From assembly GCA_051294905.1 (NCBI GenBank), contig CM119371.1, forward strand, positions 16,742,001 to 16,806,000: a stretch of 64,000 bases of DNA, written 5' to 3'. This document shows positions 17,532 through 61,235 of this stretch, piece after piece. A program made the translations under genes and the position numbers. Each line of letters opens with the position of its first letter. Positions within the stretch are counted from its first letter, which is position 1. The notes under the pieces are model-generated. The model was not told the DNA's origin and did not search any database. It was given only the letters and a program-made list of their open reading frames with translations. This stretch comes from Botryllus schlosseri (Eukaryota).

Positions 17532-17602
17532 CTATAAATTATGTATGCTTCTTTTTAGGAGGAGACGTATGCATTTCAAAACCAAGCTATCCAGAGAGAA
17601 TT

Positions 17603-25386: not shown

Positions 25387-25394
25387 ATATAGGT

Positions 25395-26449: not shown

Positions 26450-26890
26450 AGGGGTTCTTATGGGCCCGCTCGCACGGTGCCTCGAAACTCGTGTTGGCAC
26501 GGTGACCCTTTTGACCCCCCCTATCTCTCGCACGGTGCCATTGTGTCTTATGGAGCCTCTCACACGGTAACCCTTTTCGGTATAGGCATCTCTCACACGG
26601 TGCCTCGAAAACTCGTGTTGGTGAGTCGTACTTCCAAGTATAGGCATCTCTCGCATGGTGTCATTGTGTCTTATGGAACCTCTCACACGGTAACCCTTTT
26701 CGGTATAGGCATCTCTCGCACATCGCATGGAAAACTCGTGGTGGCACATCGCCCTTTCGGGTATTGGCATCTCTCGCACGTCGTACTTTCGCATGTCGTG
26801 CTTTCGCGTATAGGTTGTGTTGGTGATTCGCCATGCGTTCTTATGGGTGTGGCGGTGATTCGTACTTTCGGGTATATACATCTCTCGACC
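26450..26890. repeat. E3 subterminal GC-rich modular array
   Basis: Modules of about 30 bp with a TCTC(G/A)CACGGT box. GAAAACTCGTG recurs at about 123-bp period. Confidence 0.85.
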
Positions 26891-29800: not shown

Positions 29801-30859
29801 CCGAGTTGTATGCACAGTTTGATATTTTTTGTTATTTGGTAATTGCTGAATATACTACTTCGAAATACTCCCTTGAACGTAATTTCCATCATCGTAATAA
29901 TCGAAGTACATTTGTGTCGAATTCGTAACAGTCGACTATGACATGATAAATTTTTGACAAGTTATGCTTGGAAGATTGGTTGTATATTACGAAAAATAAT
30001 TACCGCTCATATTCATACTGTTATCCATTGTTCGGTATTTTCAAACGAGTAAAATTTATTACTTGAGTTACTCCGCTTAATGCAAATGTAAACACAACCG
30101 TCTTTCAACATCGCAAAGACATCGATACAAAGTATACAATCAAACGCAACAAGTTTTACTTTTGTAGGTTGTGTAGGGTTATCCTGCATAACTCATTTCT
30201 TACCAAAGCCATATGAAATATATTCATGTTACACGAAAATATTCACTCATGCTACAAACCTGTACAATGATTGGTGGTGCTTTCAAACTGTTTCGATACC
30301 TCAAGAACTTTATTGTCTGAATGGTTGTTCATGTATCATAATAATCAAGTAATTCAACACAGAACTAGTATTAACAGAAACACCAAAGTTGTTTACACAA
30401 AAGTTTGTATGTGTACAGTATACGAATACCATGTGTAAGTCCAGCACAATTGTGTACGAGTTTAGTTAACACAATTTACGACACCGAGGTCGCGTCATCT
30501 TTCGTAAGACAACAAACCAAGGCTTCAGGATATGTCCATGTCATAGCAATGAATCAGCTACTCCAACAACAGAGTGCATATGTTTTCTAGTTACGGTGCT
30601 TACATCTTACACACAAATCAATCTACTATGCTAACGAAAAGTGGTGAGTCATCATATGGTTATCCTCACTAGTAAAACATACTATCATACAAAATGGTCG
30701 TTATAGTTTGCACACCAACGGTACATCGTACAAGTAACAAGTCTCGAGCATCCAGTTATTCAAAAAACGTGAAAGTATTTCTACACCAAGTCGTTATGTT
30801 GACGAAAGCGTATATTGTAATACCAGTAGTTAAGTAGATCGCTCGCGAACGGCTAATTT

Positions 30860-31335
30860 TTGCATGGGGCTCTTATGGCGGGGTGGCGATTCGTATTGAA
30901 AACCGGGGGTGGCGACTCGTACTTTCAGACCCCCCTCGGGGCCGCGATTCGTAATGGGTTCTTATGGACGCGGTCGTGATTCGTACTTTTGGGTATAGGC
31001 TGTGGTGGTGACTCGTATTGAAAACTCAGGGTCGTGATTCGTACTTTTGGGTATAGGCAGCGGCGGTGATGTGCCTGAAAACTCGTGGTCGTGACTCGCC
31101 TTTTTTGCTATGGGCTGCGGCGGTGATGCGCCATGAAAACTCGTGTTGGTGATGGTACCCTTTCAGACCCCCTATCGCTCGTGATGTGCCAATGGTTCTT
31201 ATGGGATCTCTGGTGATGTGCCATTGTTTCTTATGGTATCTCTGGTGATGTGTCATGTATTCTTACGGGATCTGTCGTGATTCGCCATGTGTTCTTATGG
31301 GTGCGGTCGTGATTCGCACTTTCAACCATCTCTCG
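30860..31335. repeat. E2 left subterminal array (mirror copy at about 59020-59495)
   Basis: Modules with GTGATTCGTAC or GGTGATGTGCC boxes separated by CTTATGG, GGTATAGGC and GAAAACTC linkers. Confidence 0.85.
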
Positions 31336-32539
31336 CGTGGTGTTGAATAGTCACCAACAATATCCGCACAAACGGAAACGTGGCTTGTAAGAGGATTTAC
31401 GCAGTGCGTGCGACAGACGGCGATTCGAATATCAACAATAGTCGCGTTCGCAAACTAACACTTCAAAAAGATGTGAAATATTTGTAAAATCCTACGATCG
31501 CTCACAAGATACCACTTCCGGCATATCGATCTATCACTCAATACACAACCGAAGTTGAATTGTAATTGAATGCGTAAATTTATCAACTCGACATCAAAAT
31601 TCGAAAACAACAACTTGATGCTTTATGTTCTCACTCTAATTTCATGATAAGTGTAATAAGTGCCGAATAACAGATACATCACCGGCGAGACTTGAATACC
31701 AACAAATTGTCACTTATTTCTATTCTAGCCGTAATCCTTTGTGAAGTTAACGCTTATTCAAAAAGGTGTGAAATAGTTTGCAAAACCCCGCGACCACTGA
31801 CAAGATAATGTCTCGGACATACCCATCTTTCACGACTTGGTGTCATAGCCATACCGATCGCTCACGCGGTGAAATTTTAGTAATCAGTTTGTCACAGAAC
31901 TAGATTTCACTGGTAAGATTTAATAAATACCGACTATCAGAACCATCAGTGTGGGTAACTTGAATAGCAACAAATTGTCACTTATTTCCGACGGGAAGTT
32001 CACTAAACCGCAGTACAATGCGGGATTTTGAAAAACAGATGTTCGCGAGCGCGTTTTGATATGTGTGACCCACTAACTACGTCCGCTTTGGAGACGCGAT
32101 CTGTTGTGAGGATTTCGAACGCGCACTATCGTATCGATTATTCCACTAATCCAGTCAGCACTATTACATTCAGGAGTATTCGGTATTCAGCAGCGACACG
32201 AAAAACGATCAACAAATAACTGCGTTCACAAACCAACACTTCAAAAAATGTGTGAAATAGTTTGCAAAACCCCGCGATCGCTGACAAGATAATGTCTCGG
32301 GCATAACCATTTTAGTGACTTGGTGTTAAAGACATACCGATCGCTCACAAGGTAATATTTCGGTAATTAGTTTGTCACAGAGCCGTCGCAGACGGTGATT
32401 CGAAAACCAACAATTTGACACTTTCTGGTGCTTGCTATATGTTTTGACACTTCGGAACGTGGTTGACTTTAGTTGTATGATAAGAATCATGTGAATATAC
32501 AAGTAATGTGAGTAGTATAGTCGATCGCTCGCGAACGGC

Positions 32540-33360
32540 CATTGTGGCTTATGGGTGCGGCGGTGAGGTGCCGCGAAAACTCGTGGTGGTGATGGCACCC
32601 TTTTGACCCCCCCTCTCGGCGGTGAGGTGCCATGTGTTCTTATGGATGCGGTGATGATGGCACCCTTTCGGGTATAGGCTGCGGCGGTGAGGTGCCGTGA
32701 AAACTCGTGGTGGTGATGGCACCCTTTTACACCCCCTCTCGGCGGTGAGGTGCCATGTGCTCTTATGGATGCGGTGATGATGGCACCCTTTCGGGTATAG
32801 GCTGCGGCGGTGATGTGCCTGAAAACTCGTGTTGGTGACTCGCCTTTTTTGCTATAGGCGGTGGCGGTGATGTGCCATGTATTCTTACGGGATCTGTGGT
32901 GATTCGCCATGTGTTCTTATGGATGCGGTCGTGATTCGCACTTTCAGGCATCTCTCGCGCGGTGTTGAATATGTACGAGTCACCAACAATAACCGCACAA
33001 ACGGAAACGTGGCTTGCAAGAGGATTAAGCAGTGCGACCTATATTTCGAATGACCTGCGCGCTGAATTGTTTCACAGCCAACCGCGGTGGTCGTGACTCG
33101 CCTTTTTTACTATAGGTGGTGACGGTGATTCGCCTGTCGTGTATTCTTACGGGGATCTGTGGTGACTCGCCATGTGTTCTTATGGGTGCGGTCGCATGCG
33201 GCTATTGCGTCTTATGGCGGGGGTGGTGAGCGGCTATTGATGCTAACACGAAACCCGGGGTGGCGAGCGGCACATATTTCTTATGGCGGCGGGTCTTATT
33301 TCTTATGGATGCGGTCGTGATTCGTACTTTCGGTATAGACTGCGGGCGGCATGTCGTACT
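32540..33360. repeat. E1 left subterminal array (mirror copy at about 46317-47137)
   Basis: About 123-bp higher-order repeat (GAAAACTCGTG at 32575, 32699 and 32821) with GCGGTGA(G/T)GTGCC boxes. A second, looser block lies at 33085-33360. Confidence 0.85.
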
Positions 33361-36300
33361 TTCAGCAAAAAAAGGTGTGAAATAGTTTGCCAAGTCTAGG
33401 AATCACTTGCAAGGTAATATTTTGGTATTTAGTTTACCACAGAGCCGGCGTAGACGGCGATTCGAATATCAACAATAACAACGCTCACGAATTAACACTT
33501 CAAATAGCTGTGAAATAGTTTGCAAAACCCCGCGATCGCTGACAAGATAATGTCTCGGTCATAACCATCTTTCACGACTTGATGTCATAACCATACCAAT
33601 CGCTCACAAGGTAATATTTTGATAGTTTGTCACAGAACTTGATATCGCTGGTAAGATTTAACAAGTAACGAATAACAGACCGCCAGTGTCGGTAACTTGA
33701 ATAGCGACAAATTGTCACTTATTTCCGCTCTAACCCTAATCCTTTGTGAAGTGAACGCTTATTCAAAAGGGTGTGATATAATTTTAAAATCCTACGACAC
33801 TCACAGGGTAATGCTTCAGACAAAGCGATCCCTCATGCCCGCTCACAAGGTAATATTTCCGTAATTAGTTTGTCACAGAGTCGTCGCAGACGGTGATTCG
33901 TAAACCAACAATTTGACACTTTCTGGTATGGTCGCTATATGTTTTTGACACTTTGTCCGTGTTTGACTTTAGTTGTATGATAAGAACCATGCGAATATTC
34001 AAGCAATGTATCAATTGAATGAAATGAAACTTACTACACAGCTCAAGTTGATTCGTATTTGAATGTGTTGATCCGGTACAATTCTAATTAATTTGAGAAA
34101 TCTTTTTAACGTGATCTTCTGATTCGACCGTAACCTGAATATTACTGACGCCGACTTTCAGTCACATTGAATTATTCACACATTCCACGCCGCTGTTTTA
34201 ACAGTTATAGAATCAATACCAACTATCTCTAACCCGATAATATTCAATCATTTTGGTAATTTGCCAACTTTAAATCCATTCGCGGATGTACTAAAGGTAA
34301 ATCCAAATAATCCAAAATGAAATATTTGGACTTTGACATAGTCTGAATTGAAATAGATTGACAAACATGACTACCAACTTTCACGCAGTCCCATTTCGAT
34401 ATTATATGCACATTGATTTGAAACAAGTAATGCAACATTGCAACTCTATTCGCGATCCCGCTTTCCGTTTGTCAAAGAGATATTTTAACATCTTACCATA
34501 CTCAAAAGAATTCTTCACAACATTAACAATTGTTAAAAATCTAGTTTTCACTTACTTGATTATATCACTACAACCCACAAACTTGAATTAATTCATCCTG
34601 GCTGTATTCGTATGATCGGTCTTTTTTATTCGATTGTAAAGGTCGTTACTATTCTGAAGACAAAGTATTTACTAATCGGTACATATACGATTTTACTTGG
34701 ACATATTATATTTTGAGTATACGAGATTTGAATGTCCGAACAATAACTGAGAATTAATTTATCACAATTAAATCCGTATATTACAGCGTAAAAGATATTG
34801 GGGGGTCAGCAACTCTGTACGGTCGTAGTTACAACCACATTAACTAATCTACCCAGGCAACTCGTCATGATCATTCCTGAAATCAACACAAACACGACCA
34901 CTGACTTGAGTTAACCGCGAAACAGCATCAAGTTTTAAATCCGCTTGCAGCTGACGGATTATTCGAATGCATCGATGGAGAATATTATTGAACTCGTCGG
35001 TATTGTTACTTCAACAAATTACACCGACTGCGAAAGTTAATATCGAATGGTAAGACTTGATCACATATTTGTTGATCACAGACACGACAAAAAAACATTA
35101 CCGAGATTTTATAAACTAGTCATATTACTCTACACATCTATCAATATCAAAATGCGAGTCATCCAATTTATCTACTAAAGTAACATTGCACTTTCGGATT
35201 CGGTATAGTCATACAAATTGTATTAAATCCAAAATCAAAACAAAAGGATTTTATTTTTTAGTTTATTGAAATCAAATCATTCGTCTTCGACTTGTGCTTT
35301 TCTAGATTGCACGCAACAATTCGTTACGAACGAGCTGTAACCAAAGTTAAGAATTCTTTGTGTCCACAGATATAGAAGATGAATATAGCTAACACAATCG
35401 CGAATCGATGTTTCAGAGTATTTCACGGATGTAATAAACTTGTTAGTGTCCCCTATCTAAAAAGTATGCATGCGTTCGATTTCCATACCGACTGTTGCGA
35501 TGTTTAGGATTCGTTTACAATGACCAAGAGTGAGGATTTAACATCAAAGTCGTTACTGGAGGTATTCACAACAGAGAATCGAAACATTACACAGTGTGAA
35601 AATATATCTTTGATATCAAAGCACTATCCCAAGTACACGATTAATACTCAACTCCGTTCACACTTTCTATAGAACGTGCTAAATGTAAAATATCACGAGG
35701 TTGCACTCTAAGACTTTGATCATTACAAAAGTAAATTGAATATGTCTGCTCGACGCATTCAATTCAACTAGAAATGTCTAGTGCACAACAATCGTAATAT
35801 TAAGGAAGTACTTGCTACACTGTAATTCACTTAACGTGTTTTGCATTGTTGTTCATTTGTAGTATTGATTGTTTTTGAACCCCCAAATAATAATTCCCGA
35901 CATGAAACCAAACCGCTGAAAGTCGTTACCAACACAAAGAAACACTTTGTATGATGTTTGCCAAATGTACCCTATGGTTAGGTGTACCAGAATTATTTGT
36001 GTAACACATACACCGACAATGTAATCGAAAATTTTTCCGTTGTCATTCGCTAAAGTAAATGTCATCACAATACTCTGTCACTAAAGATCTTACTTGTATC
36101 TGATTGAATCACCGATAATTAACTCGCTAAATCAAACCATAAGGAAATTTCACTCACTCATCAGATATGAAACAGCGTCGCTTAATCGGTGTAGATCGTT
36201 TTTCTAAATGCAAATCATACCGGACCAACAGAAAAACAATTTTCACTCACCTTGTAATGAAACCAAGTGTAGTGGACCTTCGTTCAATATTTTGTTTGTG

Positions 36301-37899
36301 TCAAATACTTTGCGATAAACACACTGGAGTGGTCGAGCTTTACATCAGCAGACTGTAATCTGTAAATCAAGCTTACATCCGACTTGTAACTGTATCGTTT
36401 ACCTAACCGAGTTGTATGCACAGTTTGATATTTTTTGTTATTTGGTAATTGCTGAATATACTACTTCGAAATACTCCCTTGAACGTAATTTCCATCATCG
36501 TAATAATCGAAGTACATTTGTGTCGAATTCGTAACAGCCGACTATGACATGATAAATTTTTGACAAGTTATGCTTGGAAGATTGGTTGTATATCACGAAA
36601 AATAATTACCGCTCATATTCATACTGTTATCCATTGTTCGGTATTTTCAAACGAGTAAAATTTATTACTTGAGTTACTCCGCTTAATGCAAATGTAAACA
36701 CAACCGTCTTTCAACATCACAAAGACATCGATACAAAGTATACAATCAAACGCAACAAGTTTTACTTTTGTAGGTTGTGTATGGTTATCCTGCATAACTC
36801 ATTTCTTACCAAAGCCATATGAAATATATTCATGTTACACGAAAATATTCACTCATGCTACAAACCTGTACAATGATTGGTGTTGCTTTCAAACTGTTTC
36901 GATACCTCAAGAACTTTATTGTCTGAATGGTTGTTCATGTATCATAATAATCAAGTAATTCAACACAGAACTAGTATTAACAGAAACATCAGAGTTGTTT
37001 ACACAAAAGTTTGTATGTGTACAGTATACGAATACCATGTGTAAGTCCAGCACAATTGTGGTATCCAATACGAGTTTAGTTAACACAATTTACGACACCG
37101 AGGTCGCGTCATCTTTCGTAAGACAACAAACCAAGGCTTCAGGATATGTCCATGTCATAGCAATGAATCAGCTACTCGAACAACAGAGTGCATATGTTTT
37201 CTAGTTACGGTGCTTACATCTTACACACAAATCAATCTACTTTGCTAACGAAAAGTGGTGAATCATCATATGGTTATCCTCACTAGTAAAACATACTATC
37301 ATACAAAATGGTCGTTATAGTTTGCACACTAACGGTACATCGTACAAGTAACAAGTCTCGAGCATCCGGTTATTCAAAAAACGTGAAAGTATTTCTACAC
37401 CAAGTCGTTATGTTGACGAAAGCGTATATTGTAATACCATGATCGATTTGCATTCGTTGGTCACAAACTGTCACTACTCTAAATAATTATTTTTCACTCA
37501 AACACAAAAGCATACTTGTCGCCAATCGTTTTCATCAAGTACGAGTTCAAGAAACTTACTACGACATGAATTTTTATTTTTATGTTGTGTAAATAGGTAA
37601 TAATTATTTCAAGTAACACTATATCAACATCATCGAGTTGTGCTAATAGATTTACATGCGATCTTGTGGTTTTCATCGGGACATACAGCACGAACTAACT
37701 GTAGACTCCTCTCTGTTGTACAGCTACTCGGTAATCGAAATGCATTAACATGTAAACAACGATCTTGTTTCGTCACACCAAAAATATGTTCACTGTCGCG
37801 ATACTCCGCACAAGACGTGCATAGTCTTTTCACACTCGTAATAGTATACCAACGGCAAGCGATAACGTTTAACAAGACCAACGACACTGAACCCACGAC

Positions 37900-38680
37900 G
37901 TTTACCTATGTAAAATTACCACTTTCACTTGCCAGTCCATCGTTTACCTGACTAAACATATTATTTTCCTTTGGAGATCTGATGTTTACCCAGAGTAAGA
38001 AACCTTTTTCACTTGGAAATCTATTTTTTCCTTGGCTAACAAACCTTTTTTCACTTGTAAATATGTTTTTTCCTTGGCTAACAAACCTTTTTTCACTTGG
38101 AAATCTATTTTTTCTCTGGTTAACAAACCTTTTTCCCCGGGTAACAAACCTTTTTCCCTGAGCAACAAGCCATTTTCACTTGGTGGTCCGTCGTTTACCT
38201 GAGTAAAAATATCATTTTCCTTTGGGGATCTGGCGTTTACCCGGTGTAACAATACATTTTCGCTTGGAAAAATACTTTTACCTAGAGTAACTAATCATTT
38301 TCTCCTGGGTAACAATCCCTTTTCGTCTGGAAACTATCATTTAACTGAGTACCAATACCGTTTTCACTTGGAAATACATTTTTTCCCTGGGTAACAAACC
38401 TTTTTCCCTGAGCAACAAACCATTTTCACTTGCAAATATATTTTTTCCTGGGTAACAAACCTTTTTCACTTGGAAATATATTTTTTCCCTGGGTAACAAA
38501 CCTTTTTCGCTTGGAAATATATTTTTTCCTTGAGCAACAAACCATTTTCACTTGGCGGGTCGTCGTTTACCTGACTAAAAATATCATTTTCCTTTGGAGA
38601 TCTGGCGTTTACCCAGTGTAACAATACATTTTCTCTTGGTCATCTAGCTTTTCCTAGAGTAACAAAACCATTTTCATTTT
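37900..38680. repeat. About 41-bp satellite in the E1 left arm (mirror at about 40997-41777)
   Basis: Unit similar to CCTTTTTCACTTGGAAATATATTTTTTCTCTGGGTAACAAA. Confidence 0.9.
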
Positions 38681-39397
38681 GAAATCTGACAAACACACCT
38701 GACAATTTGATAATTTTGTATATTGTTACAACGAACAGTGACGGAAATATACACAGACTACCGGTTTCAGAGTACACCCCATCGGTCGTATCACGTCAAT
38801 ATCATCGGTTAACCACATACAATATACTCTTGTACACCGAAATGCACGCTTTGGAAAATTGGACAATAGGCTGCGATAGTTCTGTGATGTCCGGGTTCGT
38901 GCTTTAGATTTTCCAGAGTCAAAATGTCTGAATAAAACACCTCCTCGATGACGGTTGGTATGTGGATAACGGTGTTCGGAAAACGGATGGATTTATGTCG
39001 CCCATCGCGATAACAATTCCTGGTCGAGTTTTCCTCCGGCATGTTTGCTATATTGTGTCTTTATTGGTCAATGTATGTCTCGACATTCAGTTTGAAATCG
39101 GAAATGATAAAGTATGTAACCGGATCCGGATATCAACTCTGAATCGATAAACCAATGAACAATATTCAAAGTAAACATGTCACACCCTGTGTTTCCACGA
39201 AAAATACCATCCAGACATACGTCGCGCTTGTTTGCCCACATCAGTATACGCGCAAATGGAGGTGTGTGACATTGCATGCAATGTGTTGGTATACAGACAT
39301 CGATCCACAGACATTATCATAGCCGGTAGTTTTGATGTAGATCGAATGTCACTCGATAACAATACCAATAAGCCACATTGCAATGACTCTGAGTCCG

Positions 39398-40279
39398 TCT
39401 GAGCATGACATACAGACACACAAACATGGAACCGTAACATGGGTTATTCGCACGACGGTGAAAGTGAACTGCACAGAATATACCAATAGAGCGTTCACAG
39501 ACATTCACCGTGTACAATCATATAACCAGATTTTTGCTGGATATGTACGAAACCGATAAATCGATACATTTCTGTTCCTTCGACGTCAATAATACAAGCG
39601 TCGTTCCAATGCATCGCTCGAATGTAAGGTTCTTCAGGTGTAAAACCTATGTCAAATAACACCAAAGTGTGCCTTCTGTGTTTTATTATTTCCACCGATG
39701 CATCTTGCCTGTGTCGTAACACTATGGTGCAGGGACTCGAAAAACGGTACTTTGTAAAACGGATTGACATGACCAACTGAAACGACGTCGATAGCCTTGT
39801 GGTGATGATAGTTTCAAAATGTTACCGATCTCTTGTGGCGATGACCGTTTCGAAATGGCACCGGGCGAAATGGACCCTTACGATGATGTGTTTTTTGATT
39901 GCGTGTGAAATCACGAGGTAGTGTTCTATTGTGGTGTACGATTGCAGTCTTCACATAGACACACCTTATTGGATCACAGTATCAGTCCGAGATTTGCACG
40001 ATATTTATCTGGAGTCGTTATGTGGGAGTAGCGACATCCATGCATCGTGACTGAAAGACTGATCGCAATCATTTCGAGCACCGTACTTCGATAGTTCACA
40101 TTGGTAAAACGCTGCAGCAGAAAACTTCGGTGTCGACAACACGACAGATATCGATCGATGTATCCAATTGGTCTGGGTGATCTGTCCGGAGATAGGGTCA
40201 TGACTATCTTGCAATGTAACAACACGATAACACCATCGAGTAAATCAGCGAACGGTGTCGAAATATCGATGTAATAGCG
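39398..40279 (-). other. E1 unique spacer, 882 bp, with decayed ORF-like sequence
   Basis: Homologous to the E2 and E3 spacers. ORF fragments 39495-39776 and 39974-40294 on the minus strand. Confidence 0.85.
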
Positions 40280-49200: not shown

Positions 49201-50449
49201 GTTGCGGCATCATCTTCACAATATCACCATTTTGTTTGTGTCAATTAGTTACTTTGTATGTTATCCCACAACTCTTACAAAAGTACGAAGGATATTAACA
49301 TCGCACTAAGTAATTAACTTTACTCGATATTCTCACATTACGAAACTAAAGAATGGTTGGTTAGACTCTACAAACTGTTTCGATATCACAAGACCTTTAT
49401 TGTCTGAATGGGTGTTCATGTATCTTAATAATCAAATAGTTCAACACAGAACTAGTACTAACAGAAACATCAGAGTTGTTTACACAAAAGTTTGTATGTG
49501 TACAGTATGCGAATACCATGTGTAAGTCCAGCACAATTGCAGTATCCATTCGAGTTTAGTCAACACAAATTTATTACAACGGAGCCACGTAAACTTTCGT
49601 GAAAGAAAAGCATACTCACTTCCAGAGGGTTATGTCAACACCATAGCAGTTCCCCAACAACAAAGTACATATGTTTCTAGCCACGGTTCTTACATCTTTC
49701 ACATAGATCAATCTACTTTGCTAACGAAAAGTGCTGAGTCATCACATGATCGCTCTCACAACAAAACAGCTAGTAGATATTATCATTCAAAATATTCCTA
49801 ACCCTTTACACACCAGTGACAAATCATACAACGAATATGCTTTGTGGGTCGAATTGTTGTTCAGTGTCAAGTCTACCTGTTGAAACGTACATTAAACAGC
49901 GCAATCCAATTAAAACCACGAATCTATTTTCATTTCGTCACATACAGAAAAATAAATTTTCTTTCTCCAACACATACTTGTAACCAATCGCTTTCATTAA
50001 ACACACAACACCATAAAAGTATTTACTTTCTACAACATAGACATTCCGATGTAGTCAAGAAATATTTTTATTAATCAAAATCATCGATTTCTGTTCACGG
50101 CGTTAGTGTGTGCATGTCATACCCGTGGGCCCCGTATTAAAATGGACACGACACGACTGACTGTAAGGAGATAGAAGTCTATCACATCGATTTACATGTG
50201 GTCTTCGCTACGGTTTCAAAAAACGAATCATCTCTTTTGCATTGATCTAGACCGAGCAAGTTAGTTAATGGCCATGATTGTGTTTGTCATATGCGAATGA
50301 TAGGGTTACTGTCAAATCTACATACAACAATCTTCTGACGATCATAATAGCAATTTCATTTTCCGCCCCTTCATAATTGTACAACTCGGTAACTACGTTT
50401 AACAAGACCAATCACACTACCGGCGTTGAACACAAGATACCTATCCAAG

Positions 50450-51315
50450 TAAAAATATCATTCTGGTTTGGACAACTGACGTTTACCTGTGTAAAATTAT
50501 CATTTTCACTTGGAGGTCCACCGTTACCTAACTAAAATACCATTGTCCTTTGGAGATTTATCGTTTACCCAGTGTAACAATCCCCTTTTCACTTGGAAAT
50601 CTATTTTTGGCCTGAATAACAAACCCCTTTTCACTTGGAAATCTATTTTTGCCCTGGATAACAAACCTTTTTCATTTGGAAATATATTTTTTCTCTTGGT
50701 AACAAACCTTTTCCACTTGGAAATATATTTTTTCTCTTGGTAATAAGCCTTTTTCACTTGGAAATATATTTTTTCTCTGAGTAACAAACCTTTTTCACTT
50801 GGAAATATATTTTTTCTCTGAGTAACAAACCTTTTTCACTTGGAAATATATTTTTTCTCTTGGTAATAAACCTTTTTCACTTGGGAATATATAATTTCTC
50901 TGGTTAACAAACCTTTTTCACTTGGAAATATATTTTTTCTCTGGGTAACAAACCTTTTTCACTTGGAAATATATTTTTTCTCTGGGTAACAAACCTTTTT
51001 CACTTGGAAATATATTTTTTCCGCGGGTAACAAACCTTTTTCCCTGAGCAACAAACCTTTTTCACTTGCAAATATATTTTATCCTGGGTAACAAACCTTT
51101 TTCACTTGGAAATATATTTTTTTCGCTGGGTAACAAATCTTTTTCGCTTGGAAATATATTTTTCCCTGGGTTACAAACCTTTTTCACTTGGTGATCCGTC
51201 GTTTACCTGAGTAAAAATATCATTTTCCTTTGGGGATCTGGCGTTTACCCAGTGTAACAATACATTTTCTCTTGGTCATCTAGCTTTTCCTAGAGTAACA
51301 AAACCATTTTCATTT
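50450..51315. repeat. About 41-bp satellite in the E2 left arm (mirror at about 53702-54567)
   Basis: Same unit; this is the longest and most homogeneous array of the three elements. Confidence 0.9.
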
Positions 51316-52054
51316 TGAAATCTGACAACCACACCGACAATTTGATATTTTTGTATTTTCTTACAGCGAACAGCGACAAAATATACACCAACAACGACTC
51401 CGATACATTTGTCTAATCAAATATTCACTTGTGTTGGTGCATCCCATCAAAATCGTCGGTTACCCACATGCAATGCGCTCTTGTACACAGAAATGCATGT
51501 TCTGGAAAATTGGACAATAGACTTCGATAGTTCTGTGATGTCCGGGTTCGTGCTTTGGATTTTCCAGAGTCAAAATGTCTGAATAAAACACCTCCTTGAC
51601 GATGGTTGGTATGTGGATAACGGTGTTCGGAAAACGGTTGGATTTATGTCACCCATCGCGATAACAATTCCAGGTCGAGTTTTCCCCCGCATGTTTACTA
51701 TATTGTGTCTTTATTGGTCAATGCATGTCTCGACATTCAGTTTGAAATCGGAAACCCTGATAAAGTATGTAACCGGATCCGGATATCAACTCTGAATCGA
51801 TAAACCAATGAACAATATTCAAAGTAAACATGTTACACCCTGTGTTTCCACGAAAAAATACCATCCAGACATACGTCGCGCTTGTTTGCCCACATCAGTA
51901 TACGCGTAAATGGAGGTGTGTGACATTGCATGCAATGTGTTGGTATACAAACATCGATCCACAGACATTATCATAGCCGGTAATTTTGATGCAGATCGAA
52001 TGTCATCACACCCGATAACAATACCAATAAGCCACATTGCAATGACTCTGAGTC

Positions 52055-52962
52055 AATCTGAAGTATGACATATAGACACACAAACATGGAACCTTGACAT
52101 GGTTATTCGCACGACGGTGAAAGTAAACTGTACAACATATACCAATAGAGCGTTCACAGTCAAATATGCGAACCATGCACAATCATATACCCAGATTTTT
52201 GTTGGATATGTACAAATCCGATAAATCGATACATTTCTTTCCCTTCGACGTCAATAATACAAAGGTCATTCCAATTCGTCGCTCGAATGTGAGGTTCGTC
52301 TGGTGTAAAATCCATGTCAAATAACACCAAAGTGTGCTTTCCGTGTTTTATTATTTCCACCGTCGCTTCTTGTCTGTGTCGTAACACTATGGTGCAGGGA
52401 CTTGAAAAACGGTGGATTGTGAAACGGATTGACATGACCAACAGAATCGAGGTCAATAGACTTGTGACGATGTCGTTTCAAAATGCTCCGATATGACGAG
52501 CGCAACCTCGATCTCTTGTGGTGACGACCGTTTCGAAATGTTACCGGACGAGCTAGACCCTTACGAAAGTGTGTTTTATGATTGTGTGTGAAATCACGAG
52601 GTAGTGTTCTATTGTGGTGTACGATTGCAGTCTTCATTCCACAGAAACACACCTTATTGGATCACAGTATCAGTCCGAGATTTGCATAATCACTGTTCAC
52701 GATATTTGTCTGGAGTCGTTATGTGGGAGTAGCGACATCCATTGATCGTGACTGAAAGACTGGTCGCAATCATTTCGAGCACCGTACTTCGATAGTTCAC
52801 CATGGTCAAACGCTGCTGCAGAAAACTTCGGTGTGGACAACACATTGATCGATGTATCCAATTGATCTGGGTGGTCCGTCTACAGATAGGGTCATGACTA
52901 TCTTGCGATAACACCATCGAATAAATCAGTGAACGGTGTCGATATATCGATGTAATAGCGCG
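52055..52962 (-). other. E2 unique spacer, 908 bp
   Basis: Homologous to the E1 spacer, same orientation. Confidence 0.85.
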
Positions 52963-55900
52963 GACTCAGAGTCATTGCAATGTGGCTTATTGGTATTGTT
53001 ATCGGGTGTGATGACATTCGATCTGCATCAAAATTACCGGCTATGATAATGTCTGTGGATCGATGTTTGTATACCAACACATTGCATGCAATGTCACACA
53101 CCTCCATTTACGCGTATACTGATGTGGGCAAACAAGCGCGACGTATGTCTGGATGGTATTTTTTCGTGGAAACACAGGGTGTAACATGTTTACTTTGAAT
53201 ATTGTTCATTGGTTTATCGATTCAGAGTTGATATCCGGATCCGGTTACATACTTTATCAGGGTTTCCGATTTCAAACTGAATGTCGAGACATGCATTGAC
53301 CAATAAAGACACAATATAGTAAACATGCGGGGGAAAACTCGACCTGGAATTGTTATCGCGATGGGTGACATAAATCCAACCGTTTTCCGAACACCGTTAT
53401 CCACATACCAACCATCGTCAAGGAGGTGTTTTATTCAGACATTTTGACTCTGGAAAATCCAAAGCACGAACCCGGACATCACAGAACTATCGAAGTCTAT
53501 TGTCCAATTTTCCAGAACATGCATTTCTGTGTACAAGAGCGCATTGCATGTGGGTAACCGACGATTTTGATGGGATGCACCAACACAAGTGAATATTTGA
53601 TTAGACAAATGTATCGGAGTCGTTGTTGGTGTATATTTTGTCGCTGTTCGCTGTAAGAAAATACAAAAATATCAAATTGTCGGTGTGGTTGTCAGATTTC
53701 AAAATGAAAATGGTTTTGTTACTCTAGGAAAAGCTAGATGACCAAGAGAAAATGTATTGTTACACTGGGTAAACGCCAGATCCCCAAAGGAAAATGATAT
53801 TTTTACTCAGGTAAACGACGGATCACCAAGTGAAAAAGGTTTGTAACCCAGGGAAAAATATATTTCCAAGCGAAAAAGATTTGTTACCCAGCGAAAAAAA
53901 TATATTTCCAAGTGAAAAAGGTTTGTTACCCAGGATAAAATATATTTGCAAGTGAAAAAGGTTTGTTGCTCAGGGAAAAAGGTTTGTTACCCGCGGAAAA
54001 AATATATTTCCAAGTGAAAAAGGTTTGTTACCCAGAGAAAAAATATATTTCCAAGTGAAAAAGGTTTGTTACCCAGAGAAAAAATATATTTCCAAGTGAA
54101 AAAGGTTTGTTAACCAGAGAAAAAATATATTCCCAAGTGAAAAAGGTTTATTACCAAGAGAAAAAATATATTTCCAAGTGAAAAAGGTTTGTTACTCAGA
54201 GAAAAAATATATTTCCAAGTGAAAAAGGTTTGTTACTCAGAGAAAAAATATATTTCCAAGTGAAAAAGGCTTATTACCAAGAGAAAAAATATATTTCCAA
54301 GTGGAAAAGGTTTGTTACCAAGAGAAAAAATATATTTCCAAATGAAAAAGGTTTGTTATCCAGGGCAAAAATAGATTTCCAAGTGAAAAGGGGTTTGTTA
54401 TTCAGGCCAAAAATAGATTTCCAAGTGAAAAGGGGATTGTTACACTGGGTAAACGATAAATCTCCAAAGGACAATGGTATTTTAGTTAGGTAACGGTGGA
54501 CCTCCAAGTGAAAATGATAATTTTACACAGGTAAACGTCAGTTGTCCAAACCAGAATGATATTTTTACTTGGATAGGTATCTTGTGTTCAACGCCGGTAG
54601 TGTGATTGGTCTTGTTAAACGTAGTTACCGAGTTGTACAATTATGAAGGGGCGGAAAATGAAATTGCTATTATGATCGTCAGAAGATTGTTGTATGTAGA
54701 TTTGACAGTAACCCTATCATTCGCATATGACAAACACAATCATGGCCATTAACTAACTTGCTCGGTCTAGATCAATGCAAAAGAGATGATTCGTTTTTTG
54801 AAACCGTAGCGAAGACCACATGTAAATCGATGTGATAGACTTCTATCTCCTTACAGTCAGTCGTGTCGTGTCCATTTTAATACGGGGCCCACGGGTATGA
54901 CATGCACACACTAACGCCGTGAACAGAAATCGATGATTTTGATTAATAAAAATATTTCTTGACTACATCGGAATGTCTATGTTGTAGAAAGTAAATACTT
55001 TTATGGTGTTGTGTGTTTAATGAAAGCGATTGGTTACAAGTATGTGTTGGAGAAAGAAAATTTATTTTTCTGTATGTGACGAAATGAAAATAGATTCGTG
55101 GTTTTAATTGGATTGCGCTGTTTAATGTACGTTTCAACAGGTAGACTTGACACTGAACAACAATTCGACCCACAAAGCATATTCGTTGTATGATTTGTCA
55201 CTGGTGTGTAAAGGGTTAGGAATATTTTGAATGATAATATCTACTAGCTGTTTTGTTGTGAGAGCGATCATGTGATGACTCAGCACTTTTCGTTAGCAAA
55301 GTAGATTGATCTATGTGAAAGATGTAAGAACCGTGGCTAGAAACATATGTACTTTGTTGTTGGGGAACTGCTATGGTGTTGACATAACCCTCTGGAAGTG
55401 AGTATGCTTTTCTTTCACGAAAGTTTACGTGGCTCCGTTGTAATAAATTTGTGTTGACTAAACTCGAATGGATACTGCAATTGTGCTGGACTTACACATG
55501 GTATTCGCATACTGTACACATACAAACTTTTGTGTAAACAACTCTGATGTTTCTGTTAGTACTAGTTCTGTGTTGAACTATTTGATTATTAAGATACATG
55601 AACACCCATTCAGACAATAAAGGTCTTGTGATATCGAAACAGTTTGTAGAGTCTAACCAACCATTCTTTAGTTTCGTAATGTGAGAATATCGAGTAAAGT
55701 TAATTACTTAGTGCGATGTTAATATCCTTCGTACTTTTGTAAGAGTTGTGGGATAACATACAAAGTAACTAATTGACACAAACAAAATGGTGATATTGTG
55801 AAGATGATGCCGCAACAAGTGATATTTTGTATCGGGTGTTTGTACTTTAGGAATAGCGGAGTGTGCGATATTTTGGATATGTGTGCACGGTTGTTAACTA

Positions 55901-58900
55901 CGGTTGTTCTTGGGTCTTGCGTTGAGTAAATCATAACTATGTCTAGAATTCAAACACATCCAAGTAAGTTCTTTAGTGACTATGATTACATCTACTTTGA
56001 CGAGAGGAAATGGGAAAATTAAAATGGATACTACTGACGAACAAAAAGTGCAAAATGGTTTTATCAGATTTAGGTGTAGGATATCTTTTCGATTTCTTTA
56101 CCAGAGTGTGTTTTACAAATATCTCTAGTACACCAACGTATAGGGTACAATTATCAAACGTCGTACAAATTGTTTATGCGACGGCAACGACTTTGGGTTA
56201 CTTGGTTTCGATCCTTTTGTAAAAGATTGTCGGACAATGGGGTTATAATCTTCTGTAATGATCGAGGTACGTGATCAAGTTTCCAATCAATTAATAATCG
56301 GACATACGACTTTGGTTTAACGAATCATAATATTTCTAAAATCATAAGACACAAATCGAAATTCATATCAATCAAGACCTTTGCATGCTTTGAGTTTTGT
56401 GATGGCGTTTATTTCACCTGATAGAAATGAGCTTGTATCAATAGTAGCACGAAACGCATTTATCATTTTCGGTGTTATTGTTCACCCACTTCGACTGGTA
56501 CTCGATGCCAAAAGTGATATTTTCTAATAACCTTTACCACAACATCGGGTCTAATTATCGTGAATACTTTAATAATCAAGTCGTGGTCGAGCATTACAAA
56601 ATCTCATATATCAAATCAATGTGTCAATCCTTATGTTTACAGTATGATACCTTTCAATGTAAAACCGGCGTTTGATTGTAAGAAATGAATTCTCAACTAC
56701 GTTGGTCAGGCATTCAAATCCGGTATACTCAAATGTAATATGTTAATCTCAAACCACACACCGAGTAGTATTTACTTTGGTTTATAAAATATATCAAGTA
56801 GTAATTACTTTGTCTTGCAAAATAGTAACGACTTTTACAGTTGAAAAACAAAAGACGCGTCGTAGGGATATGAATACAACCGAACTTGCTATGGATTTTG
56901 GATTGTAGTGATTACTCGCGTAGTCTTGTCTACTTTTCGTAAGGATACTGTTGAGTTGGTTGGGTAAGTTACAAACGGATTGAATTGACAAGGTTTTTTG
57001 TATTTTACTCTTTTGTTCATGGGAAGATGCTAAAATGTTGAGACGTAATACTATTTCCGTTCACTCGATTACAACAAAAAATAACCTGATAGTTTGTTCA
57101 AGGTTTCGACAAATAGATTGAAAAATTCCGATTTAACTCATCGCGTCGCAAGTCGATCGCGGTACGCACAAGTGGTTGTCAAGTTAGAAATATTTACAAC
57201 AGGTGCTATTTCATTGATTGATTCTATTGTGTGTAGTAACACATTAAAATATCGCGATAGTATTTACTGAAACTCTATTTGATAAACGGAAAGCAGGATC
57301 GTGAATAGAGTTGTAATGTAACATTACTTGTTTCAAAGTATAATCTTGAAATGTGGCTGGATCAAAGTTGGTAGTCATGTTTGTCAATCCTATTTCAATT
57401 CACACTATGTCAAAGTCCAAATATTTCATTTTGGATTATCTGGATTTATTTTTAGTACATCCCACGAATGGGTTCCGACGCCGCGCTATAACATTTTTGA
57501 TGATAAGGACTCGAGGATTTTCATGATAGAGTTGACGAGTGATAAGATGTGTGTTTTTGTTAAGAGTTTGATTTCAAGTTAATAAAGACAATAACTGTGT
57601 AATGAACATACTTGTGATTCTTGATTCTTGTAGAGTTATAGTTGGTATTGATTCTATAAGTGTGAAAACAGTGGTGCAGAATGTGCGAATAATTCGATGC
57701 GGCTGAAAGTCGGCGTCAGTAATATTCAGGTTATGGTCGAATCAAAAGATTTCTCAAAATAATTAGAATTGTACCGAATTAACCCATTCAGATACGAATC
57801 AACTTGGTTTGTGTAGTAAGTTTCATTTCAAGTTGTCAAATTGACACATTACTTGTATATTCACATGATTCTTATCATACAACTAAAGTCAACCACGTTC
57901 CGAAGTGTCAAAACATATAGCAAGCACCAGAAAGTGTCAAATTGTTGGTTTTCGAATCACCGTCTGCGACGGCTCTGTGACAAACTAATTACCGAAATAT
58001 TACCTTGTGAGCGATCGGTATGTCTTTAACACCAAGTCACTAAAATGGTTATGCCCGAGACATTATCTTGTCAGCGATCGCGGGGTTTTGCAAACTATTT
58101 CACACATTTTTTGAAGTGTTGGTTTGTGAACGCAGTTATTTGTTGATCGTTTTTCGTGTCGCTGCTGAATACCGAATACTCCTGAATGTAATAGTGCTGA
58201 CTGGATTAGTGGAATAATCGATACGATAGTGCGCGTTCGAAATCCTCACAACAGATCGCGTCTCCAAAGCGGACGTAGTTAGTGGGTCACACATATCAAA
58301 ACGCGCTCGCGAACATCTGTTTTTCAAAATCCCGCATTGTACTGCGGTTTAGTGAACTTCCCGTCGGAAATAAGTGACAATTTGTTGCTATTCAAGTTAC
58401 CCACACTGATGGTTCTGATAGTCGGTATTTATTAAATCTTACCAGTGAAATCTAGTTCTGTGACAAACTGATTACTAAAATTTCACCGCGTGAGCGATCG
58501 GTATGGCTATGACACCAAGTCGTGAAAGATGGGTATGTCCGAGACATTATCTTGTCAGTGGTCGCGGGGTTTTGCAAACTATTTCACACCTTTTTGAATA
58601 AGCGTTAACTTCACAAAGGATTACGGCTAGAATAGAAATAAGTGACAATTTGTTGGTATTCAAGTCTCGCCGGTGATGTATCTGTTATTCGGCACTTATT
58701 ACACTTATCATGAAATTAGAGTGAGAACATAAAGCATCAAGTTGTTGTTTTCGAATTTTGATGTCGAGTTGATAAATTTACGCATTAAATTACAATTCAA
58801 CTTCGGTTGTGTATTGAGTGATAGATCGATATGCCGGAAGTGGTATCTTGTGAGCGATCGTAGGATTTTACAAATATTTCACATCTTTTTGAAGTGTTAG

Positions 58901-59999
58901 TTTGCGAACGCGACTATTGTTGATATTCGAATCGCCGTCTGTCGCACGCACTGCGTAAATCCTCTTACAAGCCACGTTTCCGTTTGTGCGGATATTGTTG
59001 GTGACTATTCAACACCACGCGAGAGATGGTTGAAAGTGCGAATCACGACCGCACCCATAAGAACACATGGCGCATCACCACATATCTCGTAAGAATACAT
59101 GACACATCACCAGAGATACCATAAGAAACAATGGCACATCACCAGAGATCCCATAAGAACCATTGGCACATCACGAGCGATAGGGGGTCTGAAAGGGTAC
59201 CATCACCAACACGAGTTTTCATGGCGCATCACCGCCGCAGCCCATAGCAAAAAAGGCGAGTCACGACCACGAGTTTTCAGGCACATCACCGCCGCTGCCT
59301 ATACCCAAAAGTACGAATCACGACCCCGAGTTTTCAATACGAGTCACCACCACAGCCTATACCCAAAAGTACGAATCACGACCGCGTCCATAAGAACCCA
59401 TTACGAATCGCGGCCCCGAGGGGGGTCTGAAAGTACGAGTCGCCACCCCCGGTTTTCAATACGAATCGCCACCCCGCCATAAGAGCCCCATGCAAAAATT
59501 AGCCGTTCGCGAGCGATCTACTTAACTACTAATACCATGATCGATTTACATTCGTTGGTCACAAACTGTCACTACTCTAAATAATTATTTTTCACTCAAA
59601 CACAAAAACATACTTGTCGCCAATCGTTTTCATCAAGTACGAGTTCAAGAAACTTACTACGACATGAATTTTTATTTTTATGTTGTGTAAATAGGTAATA
59701 ATTTATTCAAGTAACACTATATCAACATCATCGAGTTGTGCTAATAGATTTACATGCGGTCTTGTGGTTTTCATCGGGACATACAGCACGAACTAACTGT
59801 AGACTCCTCTCTGTTGTACAGCTACTCGGTAATCGAAATGCATTAACATGTAAACAACGATCTTGTTTCGTCACACCAAAAATATGTTCACTGTCGCGAT
59901 ACTCCGCACAAGACGTGCATAGCCTTTGCACACTCGTAATAGTATACCAACGTCAAGCGATAACGTTTAACAAGACCAACGACACTGAACCCACGACGT

Positions 60000-60490
60000 T
60001 TACCTATGTAAAATTACCACTTTCACTTGCCAGTCCATCGTTTACCTGACTAAACATATTATTTTCCTTTGGAGATCTGACGTTTACCCGGAGTAAGAAA
60101 CCATTTTCACTTGTAAATATATTTTTTCCTTGGCTAACAAACCTTTTTTCACTTGTAAATATATTTTTTCTCTGGTTAACAAACCTTTTTCACTTGGAAA
60201 TATATTTTTTCTCTGGTTAACAAACCTTTTTCACTTGGAAATATATTTTTCCCTGGGTAACAAACCTTTTTTCACTTGGAAATATATTTTTTCTCTGGGT
60301 AACAAACCTTTTTCACTTGGGAATATATTTTTTCCCCGATCAACAAACCTTTTTCCCTTGGAAATATATTTTTTCCCCGAGCAACAAACCATTTTCACTG
60401 AGCAACAAACCCTTTTCTCCCCAGGCAACAAACCCTTTTCGTTTGGAAAACTATCATTTACCTGAGTACCAATACCATTTTCGTTTTGAA
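60000..60490. repeat. About 41-bp satellite in the E3 left arm (mirror at about 62899-63389)
   Basis: Same unit, shorter array. Confidence 0.9.
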
Positions 60491-61235
60491 AACTGACAAC
60501 TACACCGGTCAATTTGATATTTTTTGTATATTGTTACAACAGACAGTGACAAAATATACACCAACAACGACTCCGATACATTTGTGTAATCAAATATTCA
60601 CTTGCTCTGATGCATCCCATCAAAATCATTGGTTACTCACATACAATAACAATGTGCTGTTGTACATCGACATGTATGTTTTCGGAATTGGCGAATAAAG
60701 GGGTTTCTGATATGTCCGTGATGTCCGGGTTCGTGCTTTGGATTTTCCAGAGTCAAAATGTCTGAATAAAACACCTCCTCGACGATGGTTGGTATGTGGA
60801 TAACGGTGTTCGGAAAACGGTTGAATTTATGTCACCCATCGCGATAACAATTCCAGGTCGAGTTTTCCCCGCATGTTTACTATATTGTGTCTTTATTGGT
60901 CATGTATGTCTCAACATTCAGTTTGAAATCGGAAACTCTGATAAAGTACGTAACCGGATCCGGATATCAACTCTGAATCGATAAACCAATGAACAATATT
61001 CAAAGTAAACATGTTACACCCTGTGTTTCCACGAAAAAATACCATCCAGACATACGTCGCGCTTGTTTGCCCACACCAGTATATGCGTAAATGGAGGTGT
61101 GTGACATTGCATGCAATGTGTTGGTATACAAACATCGATCCACAGACATTATCATAGCCGGTAGTTTTGATGTAGATCGAATGTCATCACACCCGATAAC
61201 AATACCAATAAGCCACATTGCAATGACTCTGAGTC

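Follow-up and report, generated by a model that had tools for sequence, protein, structure and literature searches.

A Maverick/Polinton codes 'by definition' for a protein-primed family B polymerase and a retrovirus-like integrase (PMC5499653), and vertebrate Mavericks are described as having (AGT)2//(ACT)2 ends, duplications of 6 bp and inverted repeats that are 46-1447 bp long (PMC8097293); a summary of the original Polinton description puts the inverted repeats at 100-1000 bp (PMC4196379). In butterfly Polintons, terminal inverted repeats of ~2 kb duplicate the hexon and adenain genes (10.1101/2025.02.07.637071). Among the titles and abstract openings that literature searches listed, we found no description of palindromic or multi-kilobase-armed non-coding Polintons.

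The 64,000-nucleotide stretch of Botryllus schlosseri DNA analysed here (the window) holds three gene-less, hairpin-shaped Maverick/Polinton relatives stacked one inside another, E1 within E2 within E3. Each is built from two near-identical inverted arms of 6.1-6.9 kb around a 0.9-kb loop, such that inverted repeats make up 93-94% of the element. We think it probable (roughly 70%) that the three are members of an abundant, non-coding, ~14-kb palindromic family derived from Mavericks/Polintons, and that ordinary insertions, equalisation of the arms at the time of copying and fold-back repair together account for the locus.

Architecture of the nest and order of insertion

The composite spans 41.8 kb: E1 lies at 32511-47166 and has arms of 6887 nt, E2 lies at 30825-59530 and has an arm of 6568 nt (8 mismatches) split by E1, and E3, with an arm of 6104 nt (4 mismatches), runs from 26420 to 4257 bases past the window end (L001:4257). 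Its parts are as follows, with the strand given where a feature has one.

23283..26419: mirrored flank, left copy; host DNA that contains one common repeat (1.16 kb)
26420..30818: E3 left arm, outer part, AGTAGT terminus first; 4399 nt, 1 mismatch against the right arm
30819..30824, + strand: E2 target duplication AATACC, left copy
30825..32504: E2 left arm, outer part; 1680 nt, 6 mismatches against 57851-59530
32505..32510, + strand: E1 target duplication AATGTG, left copy
32511..39397: E1 left arm; carries 123-bp repeats subterminally and tandem repeats of 41-42 bp internally
39398..40279: E1 loop, 882 nt; loop identity with E2, E3 and three further copies 84-93%
40280..47166: E1 right arm; 6887 nt, 3 mismatches
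47167..47172, + strand: E1 target duplication AATGTG, right copy
47173..52054: E2 left arm, inner part
52055..52962: E2 loop, 908 nt
52963..59530: E2 right arm, unbroken; contains the empty E1 target 57845-57850
59531..59536, + strand: E2 target duplication AATACC, right copy
59537..61235: E3 left arm, inner part; 1699 nt, 3 mismatches
61236..62153: E3 loop, 918 nt; orientation inverted relative to the E1 and E2 loops
62154..64000: E3 right arm, in-window portion, continuing to L001:4257; contains the empty E2 target 63853-63858

All six ends of E1-E3 read AGTAGT at the start or ACTACT at the end, and a search for the terminal word GATCGCTCGCGAACGG that tolerated up to three mismatches gave six matches in the window against 0.13 expected; five of these matches are element ends, including the single end of E3 that falls in the window. 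Tandem arrays, repeating every 123 bp or every 41-42 bp, occur in the arms, most of whose length is non-repetitive. No long frame is open in the nest (at 196 aa, the largest lies inside the subterminal repeats), a tblastn search with all 28 frames of at least 100 aa from an autonomous copy (see below) returned only repeat-derived matches there, and two other frames in the window had no match in Pfam.

The nesting itself, as claimed in an earlier note on this DNA, is confirmed by the junctions and by perfect 6-bp target duplications around E1 and E2. That note had further claimed that each opposite arm keeps an untouched pre-insertion target, and this too proves correct: the site hit by E1 is present as a single copy in the E2 right arm (CACATT on the + strand), and the site hit by E2 stands in the E3 right arm (GGTATT on the + strand). 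The duplications and empty sites thus establish the order E3, then E2, then E1. The two targets lie at different positions in the arm, 1686 and 4405 nt from its left end, so insertion is not strictly site-specific. For E3, comparison of both flanks found no direct target duplication, because the flanks are inverted copies of each other. Mismatches between arms do not increase with nesting depth (E1 3, E2 8, E3 4), so the arm 'clock' gives the order no independent confirmation; these counts fit insertions in quick succession.

Similar mismatch counts are also what near-simultaneous events would leave had the nest been built off the chromosome, by sibling linear genomes integrating into one another in the replication compartment and the composite then integrating once. 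A composite at C1:33.47 Mb, which has its own 6-bp duplication (CCCACC) around the mirrored ends of another member, shows that a composite is able to move as one piece. However, at 41.8 kb the present composite far exceeds the 13-18 kb spanned by nearly all terminus pairs of the family, and E3 abuts mirrored unique host DNA with no clean duplication, which argues for a chromosomal history; we therefore consider off-chromosome assembly very unlikely. Under the favoured reading, three ordinary integrase insertions, two of them with 6-bp target duplications, would have fallen in the order E3, E2, E1 into a chromosome region dense in family members.

Kinship of the family with Mavericks/Polintons

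A terminus motif, AGTAGT-N6-GATCGCTCG, occurs 440 times in forward and 441 times in reverse orientation genome-wide, against 0 and 2 for the reversed control. The spacing of paired termini peaks at 13-15 kb (67 of 130 pairs). The same 21-nt motif is common to E1-E3 and to an 18.3-kb coding copy at C1:5923771-5942033, which has an inverted repeat of ~443 bp and codes for a polymerase of 1214 aa (PF03175, E = 5.5e-8), an integrase of 359 aa (rve, PF00665, E = 2.7e-16; Chromo, PF00385, E = 4.7e-9) and a P-loop ATPase. As to a virion module (capsid proteins, packaging ATPase, maturation protease), the 215-aa P-loop protein of this copy matches RNA_helicase barely over the cut-off and Pox_A32 under its own, and nothing in Pfam matches the frames of 432 and 131 aa. 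At least 38 polymerase loci, at 92-100% identity, are present in the genome, and 34 of the 38 lack an internal stop.

Of the Maverick features, the family has (AGT)2//(ACT)2-type ends, at all six ends of E1-E3, and perfect 6-bp duplications, at E1 (AATGTG), E2 (AATACC) and 11 of 12 further copies compared; polymerase and integrase genes are missing from E1-E3 and present in the coding copy. The usual plan of repeats of ~0.05-1.5 kb around a unique coding body is not that of E1-E3. As they contain no polymerase or integrase frames, E1-E3 can only be non-autonomous derivatives. They would retain only what is required in cis, namely the AGTAGT...ACTACT ends and the subterminal repeats, and would be mobilised in trans by autonomous Mavericks of the same genome and terminus, coding for the protein-primed DNA polymerase and the retrovirus-type integrase with chromodomain.

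In a comparison with that one autonomous copy, the match is confined to the first ~830 bp of E1. Only the copy at C1:33.47 Mb retains remnants of two left-end frames of the autonomous copy; one of them is the 131-aa frame, for which protease is our guess. In the sampled region, 10 of 14 polymerase loci do not fall between termini of the AGTAGT-N6-GATCGCTCG motif, so the coding copy can count only as a candidate for the helper lineage.

Arm identity and mirrored flanks

The arms of E1-E3 evolve in concert. In an alignment of all six, both arms agree in 1529 columns that distinguish the elements, against 12 columns in which arm differs from arm. Across ten palindromic copies, 18-86% of the arm sequence is common to different copies, at 78-87% identity, and the two arms within a copy are 96.9-100% identical. 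We suggest that near-identity is set in each round of copying and would then decay in the manner of the paired LTRs of a retrotransposon. As to its cause, the racket-like single-strand model for Polintons (summarised in PMC4196379) offers a candidate to which we give about even odds: in these elements the single-stranded 'racket' intermediate would be an almost complete hairpin, so that one arm could be corrected against, or re-synthesised from, the other. No extrachromosomal form turned up in the assembled chromosomal DNA and the contigs of one sample.

The flanks of E3 are inverted copies of each other over 3137 bp (23283-26419 against L001:4258-7392, past the window end). The copies are 99.8% identical, differing by 2 mismatches and 2 gaps, and apart from the common 1.16-kb repeat this sequence has two genomic copies only. 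The possibility that the mirrored flank is a transposon end was rejected: it is unique bar that repeat, and its outer ends show neither the family motif nor a duplication. A search for a remnant of the old right arm of E3 beyond the mirrored flank found none. A second such locus, C5:24.84 Mb, still has a 6-bp duplication that pairs the old left end with the right end, and the stretch between the duplication copies includes a fresh arm and the right flank repeated in inverted orientation. The copied flanks at these loci measure 2.1-3.1 kb. Mirrored flanks at two loci point to fold-back repair at these palindromes. We propose that long perfect palindromes in the chromosome break and are mended by fold-back priming, which at E3 would have mirrored 3.1 kb of host flank to the far side of the element, with loss of the target duplication.

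An assembler has difficulty with perfect inverted repeats and could take a path such as the mirrored flank of E3, and the read evidence consists of contigs from one sample, probably the one assembled; the palindromes or the nest might accordingly be artefacts of long-read assembly, through fold-back chimeric reads or a mis-join through inverted repeats. Against this, the loops are 0.9 kb of conserved sequence rather than an adapter, the elements have 6-bp duplications and empty sites, and hundreds of copies exist whose arm identity ranges from 96.9 to 100%. Moreover, the mirrored flank has ~2x the contig depth of the right flank next to it in four runs of the sample, and one contig extends 44 nt across the outer junction; in three of these runs (X1, X3, X4) the contig listed at that junction stops there with 44-48 unmatched letters, which fits the left copy and decides nothing about the outer junction. 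An artefact is therefore extremely improbable.

The same repair bears on the arms, as their identity might be kept in place, by gene conversion or repeated fold-back repair of each chromosomal copy, rather than set at copying. At C5:24.84 Mb such re-synthesis has taken place: the right arm and the fresh left arm share 99.6% identity, against only 96.3% for a 326-bp leftover of the old arm. E3 probably went through the same process. Yet in some copies (C3:21.38 Mb) the arms have drifted to 96.9-97.5% identity, so homogenisation in place is not continuous, and mirrored flanks of non-terminal DNA appear in just 2 of the 14 palindromic elements examined in sequence. We regard maintenance in place as rather unlikely, and prefer equalisation at copying.

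A bolder reading, possible though in our judgement doubtful, is that an endogenous Maverick virus, active at present, produces hairpin 'defective genomes' of which these elements are the record left in the chromosomes. Each round of copying would then pass through a self-paired single strand, which would keep arms of 6-7 kb identical across a divergence of 13-22% between copies and might permit the swap or capture of ends, as in the composite at C1:33.47 Mb, and the 13-15 kb size might mark a packaging or replication limit near that of the 16-18 kb helper. If true, the family would supply evidence, for the first time natural and on the scale of a genome, that Polintons replicate through the single-strand 'racket' step, which has never been observed.

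Nesting frequency and relation to known systems

The list of termini is complete for 200.6 Mb (40.5% of the genome) and holds 339 termini, forming 130 pairs and 79 orphans. Four nesting events are verified in sequence: E2 into E3, E1 into E2, and one each at C5:24.84 Mb and C1:33.47 Mb; eight pairs longer than 20 kb and six irregular terminus clusters (C2:29.48, C2:31.19, C3:19.85, C3:30.39, C4:15.81 and C5:16.86 Mb) fall outside the inspected set. Two candidate clusters of two same-strand (+) termini would raise the number to six. Uniform insertion would give 1.5 events, and allowing for local density raises the expected number to 2.2 (bins of 2 Mb) or 2.5 (neighbours lying 0-56 kb outside elements); with a Poisson mean of 2.5, P is 0.24 for four or more and 0.04 for six or more. 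Leaving out the present locus, which was picked because it is nested, gives P = 0.71 for two or more with the same mean.

The earlier note had offered two readings of the nest, targeting of the family's own sequence or structure and a permissive locus. The first finds no support in four verified events against 2.2-2.5 expected from local density: nested relative to solo insertions, counted over 40.5% of the genome, are not clearly above that expectation, so that nesting is about what local crowding of the family predicts and self-aiming is not needed. The second, a permissive or attractive region, fares better, because the nest lies in the densest region for the family on its contig (16 elements in 3.6 Mb against ~1 per Mb overall, and 4-5x the average around the nest) and because LTR and CACTG-ended elements also occur inside family members.

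Self-targeting proper would have the integrase complex prefer family DNA, by its sequence or by its hairpin or cruciform structure, so that members pile up. Two successive hits at one locus speak for it, as does the inner element at C1:33.47 Mb, which sits at the exact centre of a 306-bp remnant of another member, in a palindromic target (AACGTT). Counting all clusters gives seven overlapping pairs against 2.5 expected from neighbour density (P = 0.014), but these are six events, two of them candidates only, and without the ascertained locus two verified events stand against 2.5 expected. Solo copies predominate: 125 of 130 pairs have no second family pair inside, and an extra family terminus lies inside one of ten inspected pairs longer than 17.6 kb. 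The insertion points on the arm, at 153, 1526, 1686 and 4405 nt from an end, all differ, a common motif was not apparent by eye among 15 target hexamers, and the LTR and CACTG-ended elements insert into members likewise. We consider self-targeting unlikely. A mild preference is possible, an excess of up to about threefold staying compatible with the data because the test has low power, and if the two candidate (+) clusters are real nests, nesting would reach 2-3x expectation (P = 0.04). A striking triple nest can nevertheless be ordinary, with ~0.13 such nests expected genome-wide under uniform insertion and more where elements are clustered.

To our knowledge, the copying mode of Mavericks/Polintons has so far been inferred from their genes alone, and a family of several hundred copies that is nearly all racket 'handle', with arms in strict concert, gives access to the copying step at the level of sequence. 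Divergence between arms also offers a built-in clock by which the activity of Mavericks in this genome can be dated. Scattered roughly once per megabase, the long perfect palindromes (13-15 kb) are potential fragile sites; at two loci, mirrored flanks show that these palindromes have already altered the DNA beside them.

The closest known systems are Mavericks/Polintons, with which E1-E3 have in common the end motif, perfect 6-bp duplications and, through the polymerase- and integrase-coding copy of the same genome, the subterminal repeats. In contrast, E1-E3 have no genes at all, and their arms of 6.1-6.9 kb are 4-5x as long as the longest repeats given for vertebrate Mavericks (1447 bp; PMC8097293) and compare with 100-1000 bp in the Polinton summary (PMC4196379). 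The butterfly Polintons are similar in that inverted repeats have extended inward and one end of the element is present twice; they are, however, coding and autonomous-looking with 2-kb repeats, whereas E1-E3 are non-coding and all repeat bar the 0.9-kb loop.

The Drosophila foldback elements, FB and Galileo (the latter of the P superfamily), have very long inverted arms, internal tandem repeats and little or no coding sequence, and are apt to cause rearrangements. FB makes 9-bp and Galileo 7-bp duplications, and both need other transposases. E1-E3 resemble them in their long inverted arms, which hold tandem arrays though most of each arm is non-repetitive, and in lacking coding capacity (FB is named in PMC6431247). 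They differ in their 6-bp duplications and Maverick ends, and the 9-bp duplication of FB is absent.

Snap-back defective genomes, among them incomplete adenovirus genomes and hairpin derivatives of yeast linear killer plasmids, have one end duplicated in inverted form and hence the same origin at both ends, the self-paired displaced strand serving as template; they are extrachromosomal by-products in infected cells. The inverted duplication of one genome end is likewise seen in E1-E3 (a title on adenovirus panhandle replication is cited in PMC9863843). Here, in contrast, the elements are integrated, long-lived, diversified and present in several hundred copies, and are known from assembled chromosomal DNA and contigs alone.

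Finally, fold-back inversions and palindromic duplications arise at inverted repeats after DNA breaks in yeast and tumour genomes. The mirrored loci are alike in having an inverted flank copy joined at a palindrome, no target duplication and a non-homologous outer junction. They differ in being seeded by a palindrome that is a transposon. The flank copy, moreover, extends for just 2.1-3.1 kb before being joined up again, so that no giant palindrome or dicentric chromosome results.

Nested palindromes and concerted arms

The three palindromic elements E1, E2 and E3 lie one within another, E1 in E2 and E2 in E3, and were delimited by a repeat search together with self-BLAST of the window. Their parts are as follows (forward-strand window positions; L001 is the DNA just past the window end).

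32511-47166: E1, arms of 6887 nt and a loop of 882 nt (repeat search and self-BLAST)
30825-32510 and 47155-52054: left arm of E2, interrupted by E1
52963-59530: right arm of E2, uninterrupted
59530-61235 and 62154-63859: parts of the E3 arms flanking its 918-nt loop
26420: left end of E3; the right end lies in L001, 4257 bases past the window

The hexamer AATGTG flanks E1 on both sides and is found as a single intact copy at the equivalent spot in the right arm of E2; in the same way AATACC flanks E2 on both sides and occurs once in the right arm of E3. The earlier note had the coordinates and hexamers of these duplications, and of the intact targets in the opposite arms, correct (written for the opposite strand), and the uninterrupted E1 target in the E2 arm and E2 target in the E3 arm bear out its insertion order of E3, then E2, then E1. 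The nest it described is real, and the description precise. None of the three palindromes is perfect, with arm mismatches at 3 of 6887 nt in E1, 8 of 6568 in E2 and 4 of 6104 in E3, and four of the eight in E2 fall no more than 15 bp from a tandem repeat. Elsewhere in the window, upstream of the nest, a 733-aa open frame at 17504-19705 (+) contains the reverse transcriptase domain PF00078 (E = 1.9e-35) and resembles a non-LTR retrotransposon, and two directly adjacent frames at 5758-7694 (+), 254 aa and 393 aa long, have no Pfam match.

A complete listing of family termini, which start AGTAGT, covers 200.6 Mb of the genome, in which 339 termini resolve into 130 plus/minus pairs and 79 orphans; 67 of these pairs measure 13-15 kb, and four have a polymerase locus between their ends and measure 15.8-18.3 kb. 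Besides E1-E3, 11 non-autonomous copies were read in sequence. All are palindromes, and ten of the 11 have 18-86% of their half-length in common with one another at 78-87% identity, which indicates that the palindromic copies are a single family, old and diversified. Inside one copy, arm-to-arm identity is 96.9-100%. When the six arms of E1-E3 were aligned, 1529 of the 4821 ungapped columns held differences between elements on which both arms of each element agree, as against only 12 in which arm differs from arm; because the global alignment takes in stretches of poor homology, the percentages between elements come out too high, but this contrast is unaffected. Changes are therefore regularly copied from arm to arm. 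In some copies the arms have come to differ by 2.5-3%, which means that they are not constantly equalised in place; equalising is most simply assigned to the making of a copy.

The published Polinton model, as summarized in PMC4196379, has a single-stranded, racket-shaped intermediate in which pairing of the inverted repeats is followed by fill-in by the element's own polymerase. For palindromic elements such a racket would amount to a nearly complete hairpin, whose arms could be made equal either by correcting mismatches in the stem or by snap-back synthesis with one arm as template for the other. We infer a hairpin step of this kind, which would produce exactly the arm pattern seen.

Other arrangements also occur in the family (C1-C5 are contigs of the same genome; other L numbers are fetched stretches of it). 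Two copies, at C2:28391982-28413504 (L015-L017) and C3:21977423-22000338 (L023-L025), have two loops, in the order full arm, loop, partial inverted arm, partial arm, loop and full inverted arm, and look like head-to-head partial dimers. At C3:30391995-30431441 three right ends with an identical spacer come after a single left end, at intervals of exactly 12,914 bp; these terminus coordinates suggest that most of an element is repeated in tandem.

Mirrored flanks and a proposed fold-back repair

In place of a 6-bp direct duplication, E3 has flanks that are inverted copies of each other: the left flank (window 23283-26419) ends TCGAAG, the right flank (L001:4258-7392) starts with its reverse complement, and the inverted match, 3137 bp long, contains 2 mismatches and 2 gaps. 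At the outer ends of the mirrored flank neither a transposon or family terminus nor a duplication was found. The mirrored sequence is mostly unique host DNA, with two copies only in the genome apart from a common 1.16-kb repeat (window 23782-24940), itself present in dozens of genome copies at 83-90% identity. In Logan contigs from four sequencing runs of one sample (X1-X4), depth over the mirrored stretch is about twice that of adjoining unique DNA (19-22 versus 10.5-10.9 beyond it in X1, 70-102 versus 49-53 in X4), and the outer junction is bridged by one X2 contig (44 letters). The doubled depth and the bridging contig, data that are not independent of the assembly, argue for a real inverted duplication.

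A second nest, at C5:24843939-24865269 (L035-L037), accounts for this pattern. Here an old left terminus still shares a 6-bp duplication, ATCTTT, with the right end of the inner element. Between these two ends, counting from the left, come 326 bp of a former arm, at 96.3% identity to its present counterpart, 2080 bp that repeat the right flank in inverted orientation, and a new left arm, which is complete. Our reading is a fold-back repair in place: after a break in one arm, the broken strand would fold back on itself and prime on the other arm, and synthesis out into the flank, followed by end joining, would generate a mirrored flank. A composite at C1:33469672-33483361 (L018-L019) consists of a complete inner palindrome with the terminal 153 bp of another subfamily mirrored on its two sides (0 mismatches), joined at a palindromic inner hexamer, AACGTT. 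A separate 6-bp duplication, CCCACC, flanks the composite as a whole, and mirrored products can therefore move on.

Nesting frequency and regional crowding

From the nest, the earlier note had suggested possible targeting of the family's own sequence or structure, or else a permissive locus. Bracket-parsing of the 339 termini (200.6 Mb) yielded, beyond the E1-E3 locus, two nests whose inner element has both its ends, one at C1:33.47 Mb and one at C5:24.84 Mb, and two unverified clusters, each of two plus-strand termini, 0.36 and 6.1 kb apart. Ten pairs longer than 17.6 kb were read in sequence. An additional family terminus was present in just one, the C5 locus, and the other nine owe their extra length to an LTR-type element, CACTG-starting elements, further insertions or internal duplication. 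The expected number of nested pairs is 1.5 under uniform insertion, 2.2 from the density per 2-Mb bin and 2.5 when extrapolated from the neighbour count 0-56 kb outside elements. The four verified nesting events have P = 0.07-0.24, six events including the unverified clusters P = 0.004-0.04, and the two verified events left when the E1-E3 locus is set aside, as chosen for nesting, P = 0.44-0.71. Triple nests would be expected about 0.13 times genome-wide under uniform insertion, and family density at the E1-E3 locus is four to five times the average. These counts lend self-targeting no support, and regional crowding suffices for the nest.

Family counts per 2-Mb bin are overdispersed (variance 3.9 versus mean 2.0), with 16 elements in the 3.6 Mb of C1:14.5-18.1 Mb versus an average of about 1 per Mb. 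Foreign transposons also lie inside family members (L008-L009 at C1:15.70 Mb, L020-L022, L026-L028 and L032-L034): one of 4.0 kb has direct repeats of 329 bp, 100% identical, and a 4-bp duplication, ATGT, and three of 7.3-9.9 kb start CACTG, one of them ending CAGTG and the other two with approximate ends, and two of these three contain long open frames.

The Maverick/Polinton lineage

All six ends of E1-E3 consist of AGTAGT, six variable bases and GATCGCTCG, and the motif AGTAGT-N6-GATCGCTCG has 440 forward and 441 reverse occurrences in the genome (495.5 Mb), where the reversed control has 0 and 2. No long open frame was found in the nest, where the longest, of 196 aa, lies within subterminal repeats. 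Among the larger terminus pairs fetched, one copy without long arms, C1:5923771-5942033 (18.3 kb), carries open frames in series on a single strand, including:

Polymerase, 1214 aa: organellar/viral family B polymerase domain (PF03175)
Integrase, 359 aa: rve core and C-terminal chromodomain
ATPase: P-loop, weak A32-like similarity

This copy has an inverted repeat of about 443 bp and a 6-bp duplication. Intact vertebrate Mavericks are described as marked by (AGT)2//(ACT)2 motifs at their ends, perfect duplications of 6 bp and inverted repeats 46-1447 bp long (PMC8097293). The family therefore belongs to the Maverick/Polinton lineage, E1-E3 being its gene-less derivatives. At least 38 polymerase loci are present in the genome at 92-100% identity, 34 of the 38 without an internal stop. 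The closest relatives of the polymerase outside this genome are at most 37% identical across most of their length and come, where a source is named, from molluscs, cnidarians, a sea urchin and amphioxus. Chromodomains steer retrotransposon integrases to heterochromatin (Gao et al. 2008, as cited in PMC6839031), and the integrase chromodomain could plausibly cause the family's clustering.

Mavericks themselves are known; the hairpin-shaped, non-coding derivatives are a new structural variant, and no description of a palindromic non-coding Maverick was found in the literature searched. The nearest case, the butterfly Polintons (10.1101/2025.02.07.637071), differs in that the elements described there have inverted repeats of 2 kb that bear genes.
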